DNA of 64,000 bases from the NCBI GenBank assembly GCA_038314665.1, contig GCA_038314665.1_3677.1; one strand, 5' to 3'. Positions 2 through 53,523 of the stretch are shown here, piece by piece; position 1 is the first letter of the stretch, and every line of letters begins with the position of its first letter. A program made the position numbers and the translations under genes. This stretch comes from a phage. Under the pieces are notes generated by a model, which was not told the origin of the DNA, did not search any database, and saw only the letters and a list, made by a program, of their open reading frames with translations.

Positions 2-628
2 TTCATCTTTGGGGATGGCACTGAGAACATCATTAAGTGCCAAAGCACAAGATCGTATCAGAAAGGCACACCTCTGAACTCTGTGCTTAATGACCTACTG
101 AAGGATATGAACTTGCCAAAGGGTAGGGTTGTTGGTTTTGGAAACCAGACTTTGCAATACTCTATGGCTTTCTCTGGAAACACTGCAGAGAACCTCCGCA
201 GGTTTGCAAGGCTGACCAACTCAACATTCAGCGTTCAGGATGGGGCTTTGTATTGGACCAAGGTTGGAAAAAGGTTCAAGGACTCTGTGTTTGAAATAAG
301 TGCAGAGTCTGGGATGCACGGATCTCCTACCCCTAAAAACCCAGAACCTGCTAAAAAACGAAAAGCTAAAGCTGCTGCCAAAGGTGGTTCGACATCTAAA
401 AAGAAAAAGAAAAACCCGAGAGAGGATGTTGGCCTTACTGTAACCACATGCCTTAACGGGGCCATTCTTCCAGAATCCACCATTTACCTTAAAAGCAGGC
501 AATACACAGGTTTCTATAAGGTGATCACGGTGCATCATAAAGGTACCATAGAAGGTGGTGATTACACTACAGAGCTTGGCCTTGGGGAAACAGTGGGTGG
601 AGTTGTTGACAAAACTGAGGAGGTATAA
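2..628 (+). CDS. virion tail/baseplate protein, C-terminal fragment (5' end outside window)
   Basis: Frame of ORF 83..628 stays open back to nt 2 with no stop, so the gene starts upstream of the window; Lys-rich linker KKRKAKAAAKGGSTSKKKKK; directly precedes baseplate genes. Confidence 0.5.
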   Translation, partial: FIFGDGTENIIKCQSTRSYQKGTPLNSVLNDLLKDMNLPKGRVVGFGNQTLQYSMAFSGNTAENLRRFARLTNSTFSVQDGALYWTKVGKRFKDSVFEISAESGMHGSPTPKNPEPAKKRKAKAAAKGGSTSKKKKKNPREDVGLTVTTCLNGAILPESTIYLKSRQYTGFYKVITVHHKGTIEGGDYTTELGLGETVGGVVDKTEEV

Positions 629-50411: not shown

Positions 50412-50469
50412 TGTTTAACCAAGAGTGGGAGGGGTAGTACAACCGCCTCCCCTTTAAGGAGAACTGTAT

Positions 50470-52893
50470 ATGAGTATGTGGTCTTTCGACCTGGAGGCCT
50501 CTGGTTTACTAGAAGACCTAGATCTTTATTATCACTGCGGCTTGTTTAAAGAGCTGAATAAGAACCGTTTTATGCTGTTCCTTCCTCTAAATGACCGCAC
50601 ACACTACTCTGAAGAGGATATAGAGAAGGCTAAGAACTTTATTCTGGCAAAGAAAACTCTTTATAAAGATTTTGAAGTTCGCATAGCAGATTTTTCAGAG
50701 TTGGAAGGTTGGCTTACAGGCAATTCTGACTGGTCACCCACAGCTTTGAACTGCCACAACTGCTACAGCTACGACTTTATGCTGATGGAGAGATTGTCCG
50801 GTATTCATTTTGATATGTTCCGTGATCCTAAGTGTATGGGGACTATCAACGACCACCAGGTTAATCTGTTTGATACATTGGCTATGAGCCGAATTTTGTG
50901 GCCTGACCGACCTTTGCCAAAAGGTTGTCCAGACTCAGTATTTAACCCGGTTACTAAGAAAATGCAGCCTGTTGGACCTCACGGTCTTATGGCATGGGGC
51001 TACGCCCTTGGTAACCAGAAAGTTCAAATTGATGACTGGCGCGATCTCCCGTTGTGGAAGTATGTGGATCGTGTATTCGAGGACGTTATCATCCAGGAGC
51101 TACTCTGGAAAGAGCTGGTAGCGGAATCAAAAGGTGTATTCTACGGCAAATCTGACATGCAGAACTTTATGTACGATCCAGCCAAAGAGAAGCCGAAAGG
51201 GTTCAAGAAGATCACCTGGAAGAACGCATTACGTCGAGGCATGCTGCAGCACTTCCTGATGGAGCTGCAGGCCCGTCAGGGTGTATACTTCGACATAGAT
51301 GGAGCTATTGCTTTACGTGACCGTTGCGATGCGTGGATGAAAGAAATAGCTGATCGTGTTGAACCACAACTGCCTTTAAAAGAGCTGTCAATGTCTCAGC
51401 GGCCCAAATTCCCTGAAAAGCCGTTTAACCAAGACGGGACAATCTCTAATAATGGTTGGAAATGGTTAAAAGATAAGCTTGGCTATCCTGTAGACATGAG
51501 CGCTTTAGAGTTCAAAGCCCCGCCTAAGAGAGCATTTACCTCTACAGGGGATGTCAGCAAGATGGGGATAAAATGGTGTGAAGAGATGGGCTGCAAAGAC
51601 CCCGATAAGATGGCTGATTTCTTGAGAGGCTATATTAAGGGCACTTCCACACCACACCCTTTGCCTAAAGAGCTGATGGATCAGGCAATAAGTGATCTAC
51701 AGCAGAAGCGAATGCCGGACTGCAAGATACCTATGAAAATCAGCAATCAGGACGACATTAAGCGGTATCTGATCAGCGCTGGCTGGCTCCCGACAATGTG
51801 GAGAACTAAGGATGTAACTAAAGACAGCAAGAAGAAAGCTCTACCTGATGCAGATGTTGATGCACGAGTATATGCTTATATGGACGAGCTTTTAGAGTCA
51901 GAGTATTGTGACCTAATTATCAACTTCTGGAACAAAACTGATGCTAAGTTCCAGACAACCGTGCACAAGTTCCGAAGCTTTCCTAACTCCGAAAGGATTA
52001 AAAAGGAAGTGTTCGGGAAAATACGTAGAAAAGCCAGGGCACTTATTACTTCTCCGCAACTGAAAGATACGTTTGGACACCTGTGCCCGAATCTTGAAAA
52101 ATTGAACGGAGAGATGGCTAAAGATATCGTCTTGTGGTTATCATTGCGAAACCGCAGATCGGTCCTTGACCCAATCAAGGAGGATAAGGTTGATACTGGT
52201 CTTCTTAATCACCCACGTTTGAAGATTGACCATAAGCTTCCTGCTAAAAGTTCTGGGCTAACAAACACTTCCAGACAGAAACACAGTATTTGTGCAAACA
52301 TGCCTAAACCATCTCCTAAAGTGGTTATGGGTAAAGAGATGCGTAGTCTATGGGGTGTTCCTCCTGGATACTTTCAGATCGGTATTGACGGGTCCAACTT
52401 AGAGCAGCTTATCGGGGCTTGGGGTGCCTTTGAGTTCGACAACGGCCTGTATTATGATGTTGTAAGTAACGGAGACGCACACCAAAACAATGCTGAGGCA
52501 TATACAAAAGTAGCAGGCAGAGAGGTGTCCCGTAACGACGGTAAACCTATCACGTATGGTGTTATGTACGGGGCACAAAAAGATAAAGTTGCAGATATGC
52601 TGGACATCTCTCCAGAGTTGGGGCAAAGGGTAATAGATGCACTTTGGGATGCCAACCCCGGTCTTAAGGGGCGCAAAGAGGATCTGGAGAAATTCTGGGA
52701 AGCAACAGGTAAGAAGTTTATCTACTCTTTTGATGGTCATGCTATCTGGACCCGATCTAAACACTCTTTACTTAATGCATACCAACAAAATGGTGGTGCA
52801 TCGCTGTGTGACTTAGTCGGGATACTCATGCACCACCAAATGGTGAAGCGTGGGTGGTACGATGAAGGTGTCCGTCGTATTATTTATTACCAT
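50470..52893 (+). CDS. family A (T7-type) DNA polymerase, exon 1
   Basis: Exo I FDLEASG; motif A IDGSNLEQL; motif B RNDGKPITYGVMYGAQ; ORF ends ..IIYYH then K-stop where motif C HDE is expected. Confidence 0.7.
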
Positions 52894-53169
52894 AAATAAC
52901 ATTGTGGCTTCATAGAGTAATCTATGTCGAATAACCTCTTTAACTGCGGGAAGCCTAAACCTTATGGCAAGGTAATCCGCAACGAAGCGCTCAAAAGAGC
53001 GAACGCTCAGAGGCCATTCCGAAAGGAAGTAGACCAGCAAGTGCGGTCGAAATGGGAGGATTCCTGTGGTTGCTTATCATAGGAATATGAGATGGTCCGA
53101 TCCTACGTGAAAACGTATGGCTATGCACGTAATGGTGCGGGGTAGCTTAACGACCTACCTGAACTATTG
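52894..53169 (+). ncRNA. putative self-splicing group I intron in DNA polymerase gene
   Basis: 276 nt separating YYH from DEY; preceded by U (52893), ends in G (53169); P-like TGCGGGAA (52944-52951), Q-like AATCCGCA (52974-52981), R-like CTCAGAGGCCA and S-like AAGTAGACC elements; GTGG at 52904 can pair with exon CCAT. Confidence 0.5.
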
Positions 53170-53523
53170 GATGAGTACCAACTTCAAGTGCCTGACACAC
53201 CGAAGTATAAGACTGTGTACACCTTCGACACAATTGAAGAACTGGAAGCATTTAAGGCAGAGCAGGAGGCCAAACTTCATGTGTTCGACGGTCATAAGTA
53301 CAAAAAGGCACGCAAGGATGAGGACGGAAACGAAGTGGTTGACAGAGACGGAAACACGGTGTACGATCCTATTCTGAACGATGACGGAAAGCTTGAACTT
53401 ATCTGGAGCCCTGTGGGTGAAATGGTGGTGCATTGCTTCTGGCAAGCTTCTAAAATGATGGGAGTCCCGTTCCAGATCACAGGTGAATACTTGTGTGGTC
53501 GTAACTGGGGTGATTGTCACTAA
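53170..53523 (+). CDS. family A DNA polymerase, exon 2 (motif C to C-terminus)
   Basis: Begins DEYQLQV, completing H-D-E motif C when joined to exon 1; C-terminus ..GRNWGDCH resembles the T7 polymerase end as recalled from memory. Confidence 0.6.
   Translation, partial: DEYQLQVPDTPKYKTVYTFDTIEELEAFKAEQEAKLHVFDGHKYKKARKDEDGNEVVDRDGNTVYDPILNDDGKLELIWSPVGEMVVHCFWQASKMMGVPFQITGEYLCGRNWGDCH

Follow-up and report, generated by a model that had tools for sequence, protein, structure and literature searches.

Splicing of a group I intron at the motif C site studied here was demonstrated by RT-PCR and Sanger sequencing for Pectobacterium phage vB_PatM_CB7, whose intron carries the HNH gene CB7_50 (PMC7344957). 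The polymerase introns of phages PhiI and W31 were placed in subgroup IA2 and at Pol I 'site 881' (Bonocora and Shub, 2004, as cited in PMC3428280), and the title of reference 7 in PMC3428280 terms them self-splicing. Group I introns at other sites of family A polymerase genes were described from SPO1, SP82, Bastille, and Pf-WMP3 (site 674) and from phiL7 (site 676) (PMC3428280).

The window, i.e., the whole stretch of phage DNA analyzed here, comprises 64,000 nucleotides, and all coordinates refer to its plus strand. Its sequence identifies the genome as that of a Vequintavirus, an rV5-like coliphage, with 99.3% identity to phage LL12 over the polymerase region. The intron in its polymerase gene, an unexceptional representative of an established family, is already known: in the 99.3%-identical LL12 genome (MH491969) the locus is annotated as an 'intron-interrupted gene' (CDS CPT_LL12_212), and splicing that record at the junction proposed here yields the deposited protein AXC42883.1 exactly. 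The LL12 intron (276 nt) is 100% identical to the window intron and has the identical junction, so that there is no difference of substance, and the BASEL Vequintaviruses (e.g., RudolfGeigy, MZ501102) likewise have joined polymerase CDSs with the same junction.

The intron of CB7 (Certrevirus, Vequintavirinae) occupies the identical site (...RRIIYYH|DEYQ) and has the same guide sequence (AAGTAACATTGTGGCTT). Stretches that could be matched, most of them around P1-P2 and P7.2-P9.2, are about 75% identical. At 687 nt the CB7 intron is longer and contains a 127-aa HNH ORF, whereas the window intron has 276 nt and a short P6a hairpin in place of the ORF of its relatives. The PhiI and W31 introns resemble the window intron in interrupting a family A polymerase gene and in being IA2 introns with P7.1 and P7.2, but their hosts are T7-like podoviruses, whereas the host of the window intron is a 136-kb myovirus. 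In Pol I, residue 881 is the histidine of VHDE in motif C, the homologous H|D position to the window insertion. Judged from the reported site number and the Pol I numbering, the PhiI/W31 and window introns would lie at the same site. The HNH ORF of PhiI/W31 is reported to be located in the P6 loop (PMC3428280), as it is in the same-site introns of FFH2 and SSE121; the window copy has no such ORF. The site 674 and 676 introns share with it the group I type, often subgroup IA2 together with HNH genes, and the location in conserved regions of family A polymerases; they lie in the fingers subdomain, however, and the window intron in motif C, positions which indicate a different lineage.

The interrupted polymerase gene

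A first-pass annotation of the window had described a polymerase ORF that breaks off inside motif C and continues in a second ORF further downstream, and both are present in the sequence and ORF list as described: the upstream ORF (50470..52899) has the C-terminus ...GVRRIIYYHK* and the downstream ORF (53167..53523) reads (TTG)DEYQLQV...GRNWGDCH. Joining T52893 to G53170 produces an in-frame 925-aa protein (...IIYYH|DEYQ) in which motif C is restored as had been proposed, the HDE at the junction aligning with H653|D654-E655 of T7 DNA polymerase (gp5), i.e., Pol A motif C. According to the ORF list exon 1 extends over 50470..52893 (808 codons, ending ...RRIIYYH); it is preceded by an AGGAG Shine-Dalgarno sequence 8 nt upstream of the ATG and is colinear with the intron-less genes of JeffSchatz and Murica. 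In the alignment to T7 gp5 it contains the exonuclease, thumb/fingers, and motifs A and B, with motif A (GIDGSNLE) matching GIDASGLE and motif B (RNDGKPITYGVMYGA) matching RDNAKTFIYGFLYGA, so the earlier identification of these two motifs held. Exon 2 (53170..53523, 117 codons plus stop) opens with GAUGAG, the codons for the motif C D-E. The spliced protein differs from the LL12 protein by one residue (E832Q) and had no exact counterpart in the protein collection. Its Pfam DNA_pol_A score of 32.6 bits is slightly below the cut-off of 34.3 because the polymerase is divergent, which has no bearing on the intron. A probable intein is located elsewhere in the same polymerase gene in YP-6 and JEP1 and is absent from the window.

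The intron-less polymerase genes of JeffSchatz and Murica (2778 nt, 925 aa) read uninterrupted through TATTACCAT|GATGAGTACC and at the junction equal the conceptually spliced window gene. Relative to these alleles the 276-nt gap is fixed to the nucleotide and cannot slide by even one base, and a tblastn search across the junction gave a contiguous 214-aa match to intron-less relatives with 99.5-100% identity. The intervening sequence (52894..53169, 276 nt) begins AAAUAA and ends ...CUAUUG; its exact length, the preceding U, and the terminal G are all as the first-pass annotation had given them. After splicing, the predicted junction would be TATTACCAT|GATGAGTAC, with the predicted junction-spanning peptide ...IIYYHDEYQLQVPDTPK. 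The suggested comparison with the Rfam group I model (RF00028) returned 64.7 bits, above the gathering score of 50 (E 4e-14, 52884..53119, model positions 1-253 of 253). Together with the exact boundaries given by the intron-less alleles, this places the element well outside chance expectation.

An intein at this position was rejected, as it would have to be inserted in-frame without stops, and a UAA (52897-99) is found one codon into the insert. The same stop, which follows the end of exon 1 by one codon if the RNA is unspliced, together with the TTG-start ORF spanning exon 2, would also suit a polymerase of two subunits, in which the insert is retained in the RNA and the enzyme is assembled from two separately translated products, an 809-aa protein with the C-terminus ...YYHK and a 118-aa fragment whose start is TTG 53167; such a case is reported for NrdA of Aeromonas phage Aeh1, split by mobE. 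Consistent with such an arrangement, the records of rV5, FFH2, and JLBYU08 carry two separate 'DNA polymerase' CDSs, and one intron-like insertion of CB7 in a different gene failed to splice (PMC7344957). The start of the putative second subunit, however, has no ATG and no SD-like sequence within 22 nt of TTG 53167, where the neighboring genes have AGGAG at 7-9 nt, and this lack of a ribosome-binding site and ATG argues against a two-subunit enzyme. The TTG moreover falls inside the 3' tail of the intron adjoining P9.2, the motif C Asp/Glu would be parted from the remaining active site, and the CB7 intron at the same site does splice. A complete group I ribozyme with helices preserved by compensatory changes would also be unexpected if the RNA never folded for splicing. 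Two separately translated subunits are thus very improbable, and the polymerase is almost certainly encoded by a single gene (50470..53523) in which an ORF-less 276-nt group I intron of subgroup IA2 separates the His codon of Pol A motif C from the Asp codon (YH|DE). The preference expressed earlier for a group I intron over a two-subunit enzyme is supported by the Rfam score, the covariation, the intron-less alleles, and the absence of start signals at exon 2, and the element shows all the hallmarks of a group I intron that can be read from a sequence.

Architecture of the intron RNA

Covariation was assessed in hand-delimited alignments of eight same-site introns, comprising 65 pairs in 13 helices (505 cells). 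In these eight sequences 98.2% of the 505 cells were paired, compared to 35-40% with the partners slid, and double-sided changes occurred in 27 of the 65 pairs as opposed to 0-7 in the slid controls; none of 500 shuffles matched the observed value. The eight same-site introns thereby back the structure from P1 through P9.2, with P3 and P7 forming a pseudoknot. The minimum free energy (MFE) fold independently yielded P1, P2, P3, P4, P5, P6a, P7.1, P7.2, P8, P9, P9.1, and P9.2 (z = -2.7).

P1 (52890..52907, from the cmscan alignment) pairs exon CCAU plus intron AA (52890..52895) with the guide UUGUGG (52902..52907), within which lies the internal guide GTGG that had been pointed out correctly. 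All six pairs are invariant with zero pair-breaking sequences among the eight homologs, and the splice-site wobble U52893.G52904 is kept as U.G in 8/8. A P10 candidate was read from the sequence, in which exon 2 GAUG (53170..53173) would pair with CAUU (52900..52903) over 4 bp (G.U, A-U, U-A, G-C); the Vibrio copies have 3 bp only. The omega-G (G53169) directly precedes exon 2 and is a G in 8/8 aligned introns. The P2 hairpin (52911..52926, CAUAG/CUAUG) has double changes in four of five pairs with 100% of cells paired.

The catalytic core P3-P8 (52935..53098), supported by covariation in the eight homologs, consists of P3 (52935-40/53054-59), which forms the pseudoknot with P7, P4 (52945-50/52976-81), P5 (52953-55/52971-73), P6 (52983-84/53004-05), P6a (52988-92/52997-53001), P7 (53010 and 53012-16/53093-98, with A53011 bulged), and P8 (53062-66/53080-84). 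Compensatory changes were found at two to three pairs in each of P3, P4, P7, and P8, with 96-100% of cells paired. Among the P/Q/R/S-like elements that had been proposed, the first three were placed correctly, TGCGGG being the 5' strand of P4, AATCCGCA the 3' strand of P4, and CTCAGAGGCCA J6/7 plus the 5' strand of P7. The fourth was misassigned, since the S-like AAGTAGACC (53026..53034) runs from the end of P7.1 through the GUA linker into the first bases of P7.2, and the true 3' strand of P7 is TGGTCC (53093..53098).

P7.1 (53017..53028, UUCC-GAAA-GGAA, from the MFE fold) and P7.2 (53032..53048, GACC...GGUC, from the MFE fold and covariation) are separated by a GUA linker (53029..53031). The joining of P7.1 and P7.2 by G-U-A is the criterion for IA2 introns (quoted in PMC3428280), and by this signature the predicted structure assigns the window intron to subgroup IA2. 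Downstream of the core follow P9 (53102-08/53113-20, GAAA loop; double changes in 5/7 pairs), P9.1 (53124-28/53135-39; 1/5 pairs), and P9.2 (53141-45/53155-59; 3/5 pairs), each with 100% of cells paired.

Compared to its relatives the window copy has an A.C mismatch at the base of P6, which the others lengthen there by a G.U pair, and has lost one base in P9, where a bulge results; both changes are outside the conserved core. These two defects, the loss of the ORF, and P5 and P6 that are shorter than in the FFH2-type and SSE121-type introns might be read as signs of a decayed remnant unable to splice, which would make the polymerase a pseudogene or helper-dependent for its expression. Against such decay, the window copy retains every core helix, about 20 viable lytic phages of independent isolation (among them rV5, PDX, LL12, and BASEL isolates) carry the identical 276-nt sequence, and Vibrio phages and IMG/VR contigs repeatedly contain ORF-less copies of similar size (252-337 nt). 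The exon substitutions point the same way: nearly all differences are synonymous or at third codon positions, with first and second positions diverging by about 0.5-1.6%, a pattern indicating that both exons are under strong purifying selection. We consider a splicing-dead remnant extremely improbable.

For the functional intron the following course of splicing is predicted. The guide UUGUGG would pair with the exon 1 end CCAU in the pre-mRNA to form P1 with the U.G wobble at U52893, and the folded P3-P8 core would bind an external guanosine that attacks after U52893. Exon 2 would then be held by the guide through P10 (GAUG with CAUU), and once omega-G 53169 occupies the G-binding site, exon 1 would attack after G53169 with its free 3'-OH. 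The ligated exons (...UAUUACCAU|GAUGAGUAC...) would encode a 925-aa polymerase in which the HDE motif is complete. We infer this chemistry and splicing in vivo in this phage from the family membership of the intron and the published RT-PCR on the same-site CB7 intron; in the sources searched, neither transcript nor protein data were found for this phage or for any other coliphage among the Vequintaviruses.

Distribution and mobility

Introns at the same site are also present in FFH2, JLBYU08, JEP1, TH18, SSE121, CB7, and two Vibrio phages. Among IMG/VR loci with the P1-P2 pattern, exon 1 ends in ...YH right before the intron in 27/27, and exon 2 resumes with DE... in all 16 of the 27 that could be delimited. 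Intron-plus phages include the window phage, LL12, rV5, PDX, and others, and intron-minus phages are Murica, JeffSchatz, nomo, CarlMeissner, and ECP2303, the exons of the two groups being about 96% identical; a presence/absence polymorphism as expected of mobile introns is hereby found at one site among close relatives. In the Vequintavirus population as a whole, intron-minus alleles coexist with ORF-less and ORF-bearing ones.

HNH-type ORFs are present in same-site relatives, and in FFH2 free-standing HNH genes adjoin the polymerase gene. The window intron was confirmed to lack a homing-endonuclease ORF: the two small ORFs that touch it (52924..53082, 52 aa, and 53117..53377, 86 aa), which the rV5 record lists as hypothetical proteins, matched nothing in Pfam and lack an SD-like sequence, and were for these reasons treated as spurious. 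A tblastn search of the 64-kb window with seven HNH proteins from FFH2, SSE121, and CB7 gave no match with E < 0.5. No promoters or terminators above shuffle expectation were found within the intron, and ARAGORN found no tRNAs over the whole window. A permissive whole-window Rfam scan (E <= 0.1) matched no family besides the RF00028 intron in the polymerase gene, so that the window has no detectable copy of the TerL introns that have been described from rV5.

Phages with 3-7% difference between their polymerase exons share a 100% identical intron, and a binomial test of intron identity against the overall exon rate gave values of 2e-5 to 5e-9. As proof of recent transfer this was rejected, because the exons are almost as well conserved at first and second codon positions and the test cannot separate purifying selection from recent homing. 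A clear co-conversion tract was not found, the first exon mismatch being at -22 on one side and at +17 to +98 on the other in every comparison. Set against the FFH2-type intron, the window intron is a mosaic, with ends 90-100% identical and a core of 52-78% identity. For other phage introns, spread by an endonuclease supplied in trans has been put forward under the name 'collaborative homing'. The complete intron identity, the FFH2 mosaicism, and the mixed Vequintavirus alleles hint that the ORF-less 276-nt variant could be more than a decayed copy, namely a streamlined chimeric intron still spreading in Vequintaviruses by HNH enzymes supplied in trans, a reading that we regard as tentative and rather unlikely; the enzymes could come from co-infecting relatives with ORF-bearing introns at the same site or from free-standing HNH genes as in FFH2.

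Consequences for annotation and for phage intron biology

The RefSeq entry of rV5 and other public records list two 'DNA polymerase' CDSs plus hypothetical ORFs inside the ribozyme, and the rV5 paper gives the polymerase as a 775-aa protein. The intron is thus of value for annotation, since at this locus a truncated polymerase and spurious genes would otherwise enter gene calls and comparative studies by mistake. It raises no new question and represents one more case of the known pattern in which the best conserved codons of essential replication genes in phages are the targets of group I introns and their HNH endonucleases. Coliphages that are easily grown (BASEL collection, rV5, FFH2) and in which one and the same site is either empty or occupied by an ORF-less or ORF-bearing intron would be well suited for studying intron gain, loss, and trans-mobilization.

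Interruption of the polymerase gene and its boundaries

The window comes from an rV5-like coliphage (Vequintavirus), and its 3054-nt stretch 50470..53523 (+ strand) matches Escherichia phage LL12 at 99.3% identity; for rV5, PDX and numerous further isolates the figure is 94-97%. Downstream of the primase/helicase gene, and preceded by an AGGAG Shine-Dalgarno sequence, an ORF of 809 aa (50470..52899) ends in ...GVRRIIYYHK before its stop codon, and a further ORF (53167..53523) reads TTG-DEYQLQV...GRNWGDCH. Excision of the 276 nt at 52894..53169, which are preceded by U52893 and have G53169 as their last base, results in an in-frame fusion encoding a 925-aa protein (...IIYYH-DEYQ...), and the two-ORF layout and join described in the first-pass annotation were thus accurate. 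Using phmmer against PDB sequences, the spliced C-terminal region was aligned to T7 DNA polymerase in motif A (window GIDGSNLE, T7 GIDASGLE), in motif B (window RNDGKPITYGVMYGA, T7 RDNAKTFIYGFLYGA) and across the junction (iiyyHDEyql, T7 mawvHDEiqv at residues 653-655), where D654 of T7 is the motif C metal ligand. This alignment bears out the proposed location inside Pol A motif C, with the insertion between the His and Asp codons.

An Rfam scan of the entire window gave one match, as expected under the first-pass annotation: the group I catalytic intron, RF00028, is matched over its full model by 52884..53119 (64.7 bits, E 4e-14; gathering score 50). No other Rfam family was matched anywhere in the window, even at E <= 0.1. 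In P1 of the model, exon CCAU and intron AA are paired with UUGUGG, so that the U.G wobble falls precisely on U52893. The boundaries were also defined by intron-less relatives: in a tblastn search with 214 aa across the junction, JeffSchatz, nomo, Murica and CarlMeissner each gave a single unbroken match of 99.5-100% identity, and ECP2303, likewise intron-less, was 98.1% identical. The polymerase CDSs of JeffSchatz and Murica (~96% DNA identity) are 2778 nt long, the summed length of exon 1 (50470..52893) and exon 2 (53170..53523), and at the site TATTACCAT continues directly into GATGAGTACC. Since the intron begins with A and exon 2 with G, and exon 1 ends in T and the intron in G, the 276-nt indel cannot be shifted and 52894..53169 is therefore uniquely defined. 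The element is genuine: it is a group I intron of subgroup IA2 that lacks an ORF and interrupts Pol A motif C, and the first-pass reading as an ORF-less group I intron was correct.

RNA architecture and covariation

The cmscan alignment, combined with homologs and inspection by hand, gave the following helices: P1 (52890-95/52902-07, containing the U.G wobble), P2 (52911-15/52922-26), P3 (52935-40/53054-59), P4 (52945-50/52976-81), P5 (52953-55/52971-73), P6 (52983-84/53004-05), P6a (52988-92/52997-53001), P7 (53010 and 53012-16/53093-98, with A53011 bulged), P7.1 (53017-20/53025-28, with a GAAA loop), P7.2 (53032-35/53045-48, 3' of the GUA linker 53029-31), P8 (53062-66/53080-84), P9 (53102-08/53113-20), P9.1 (53124-28/53135-39) and P9.2 (53141-45/53155-59), with omega-G at 53169. 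The P, Q and R elements of the first-pass annotation agree with this placement, as does its guide sequence; its "S" element, AAGTAGACC, corresponds instead to P7.1, P7.2 and the GUA linker between them, and the true 3' strand of P7 is TGGTCC at 53093..53098. Subgroup IA2 is recognised, as quoted in PMC3428280, by a G-U-A link between P7.1 and P7.2, and this is the arrangement of the window intron. The unconstrained MFE fold of 52884..53179 (-88.4 kcal/mol, z = -2.7) independently recovered all nested helices except the tiny P6. Exon 2 GAUG (53170-73) could also pair with CAUU (52900-03) directly 5' of the P1 guide, so that the ligated exons CCAU/GAUG would line up on CAUUGUGG in what would be the textbook P1/P10 arrangement.

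The same codon boundary is occupied by introns in eight other phages: FFH2 (843 nt, with a 168-aa HNH ORF in the P6 loop), JLBYU08 (329 nt), JEP1 (328 nt), TH18 (317 nt), Salmonella phage SSE121 (771 nt, with a 163-aa ORF), Pectobacterium phage CB7 (687 nt, with the HNH gene CB7_50), and Vibrio phages K470 (254 nt) and IBT_VpB-34 (252 nt); JLBYU08, JEP1, TH18 and the two Vibrio phage introns contain no ORF. Covariation was calculated from the window intron and seven of these (n=8, CB7 left out) with ORFs excised and the pseudoknot counted. Standard pairs made up 98.2% of 505 cells versus 34.7-40.5% when the 3' partners were slid by 1-3 columns, a percentage that is favoured because the structure was derived partly from the same sequences. 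The double-change counts are stronger evidence: 27 of 65 pairs changed on both sides (0-7 in the slid controls), the covariation score was 0.401 (0.03-0.08 in the slid controls), and none of 500 column shuffles reached the observed values. Compensatory pairs were present in P2, P3, P4, P6a, P7, P7.2, P8, P9, P9.1 and P9.2, and P1 was invariant, as expected where the exon is constrained.

This covariation leaves little room for an unspliced polymerase of two subunits, as do the missing start signals and spurious-looking small ORFs. TTG 53167 lies within the intron's 3' tail, adjoining P9.2, with no SD-like sequence up to 22 nt from it, in contrast to five neighbouring genes that carry AGGAG or GAGG at 4-9 nt; the small ORFs in or over the intron in the rV5 RefSeq record, gp222 and gp221, have neither a Pfam match nor an SD-like sequence.

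Distribution and related introns

Both HNH-containing introns of the CB7 DNA polymerase gene splice, as determined by RT-PCR and Sanger sequencing (PMC7344957). The CB7_50-bearing intron is located at ...RRIIYYH-DEYQLEV and begins AAGTAACATTGTGGCTT, and therefore shares its site and intron family with that of the window, whose predicted splicing this homology supports. Pol I site 881 is the His of VHDE, so that introns there would be at a position homologous to the window's. The introns of PhiI and W31, IA2 like the window's, would share this position, since PMC3428280 gives site 881 for both.

An exact-pattern scan of IMG/VR using the P1-3'/P2/J2-3 signature matched 27 loci. Exon 1 ended in ...YH directly 5' of the intron in all 27, including clearly different polymerases (IIYYH, LVWYH, MMHYH, MIAYH, ILSYH), and exon 2 resumed with DE... 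in 16 of the 16 loci that could be delimited, the majority carrying an ORF of 127-197 aa and four being ORF-less (253-337 nt). By blastn, phages of Klebsiella, Cronobacter, Pseudomonas and Vibrio were found to carry related intron segments in polymerase-gene regions, and such a segment is also present in the TerL gene of the rV5-like phage Av-05. The Av-05 segment (KM190144, 120740..120872, terminase large subunit) is 73% identical to the intron's 5' half (positions 8-148). TerL introns have been reported for rV5, and these may represent a related lineage whose guide and target differ; the window contains no detectable intron of this type.

In TH18 (14..217 of locus L010) and SSE121 (277..499 of L011), the motif C intron is preceded, at a distance of a few hundred nt, by weaker RF00028 matches that fall short of the gathering score (47.5 and 37.5 bits, respectively). 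The polymerase gene of these phages may therefore contain two group I introns, as in CB7; none is present at the upstream position in the window. An in-frame 969-nt (323-aa) insertion was observed in polymerase exon 1 of YP-6 (1..3399 of L043) and JEP1 (L007), and probably in EPFV3 and 241Ecol014PP, between ...SNGDAH and (Q/C)NNA, homologous to a point after 52480 in the window, where it is absent. It starts with CYSGDTQILT, ends in ...VAVCGN followed by C, and resembles an intein that contains a domain of endonuclease size.

Variation, mobility and existing annotation

Compared with the FFH2-type intron, the window intron is a mosaic, with 100% identity in P1-P2, 69% in P3-P6, 78% from P7 through P7.2 to the P3 3' strand, 52% from P8 through the P7 3' strand, and 90% from P9 to the 3' end. 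In rV5, PDX, D1 and YP-6 the intron differs at 0 of 276 positions and the exons at 2.8-6.7%; nearly all exon differences fall in third codon positions, and intron identity by itself is therefore no proof of recent transfer. The sole non-identical close relative, in EcoIv14a_Aya (97.5%), has six of its seven differences within the P8 hairpin (intron positions 167-194, homologous to 53060..53087), a pattern that points to exchange or compensatory remodelling of P8 and not to scattered drift. Homologs of the same-site introns' HNH genes were absent from the 64-kb window; were the intron still mobile, which is speculative, it would have to rely on an enzyme supplied in trans or from a gene located elsewhere. 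FFH2 has a free-standing 244-aa HNH endonuclease gene (770..1504 of L003) between the primase/helicase and polymerase genes, which in the window are separated by no more than a 58-nt spacer (50412..50469); homing endonuclease gene content near the polymerase gene thus varies among otherwise near-identical phages.

About 16 unannotated "Campylobacter phage" records (MG0656xx; host Campylobacter jejuni) carry the identical intron and show 95-97% identity in the polymerase gene to rV5-like phages of E. coli. The one record opened, D1, is flagged UNVERIFIED, and the Campylobacter host assignment looks doubtful.

The feature is already known, since a near-identical public genome carries the same junction annotation: the LL12 CDS in GenBank is a two-piece join whose note reads "intron-interrupted gene", its intron is 100% identical to the window's, and splicing at the junction equivalent to 52893/53170 gives the deposited protein AXC42883.1 exactly. 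The polymerase CDS of the BASEL phage RudolfGeigy is likewise joined, and the BASEL paper identified intron boundaries in the course of annotation. The CDS is still split in the records of rV5, FFH2 and JLBYU08, and the rV5 paper covers only the TerL introns and a 775-aa polymerase. In the rV5 RefSeq record (NC_011041; 1509..4555 of locus L002, homologous to 50470..53523) the polymerase is divided into gp223 and gp220, gp222 and gp221 are listed as hypothetical proteins despite their position inside or across the ribozyme, and a 1-nt difference in length close to the 5' end results in the shortened 775-aa ORF and a 26-aa ORF, gp224; these entries look like annotation or sequencing artefacts that merit correction. 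The intron is a member of a widespread family that is already known and has experimental support, and the main value of the finding is that it flags inconsistent annotation among related records.
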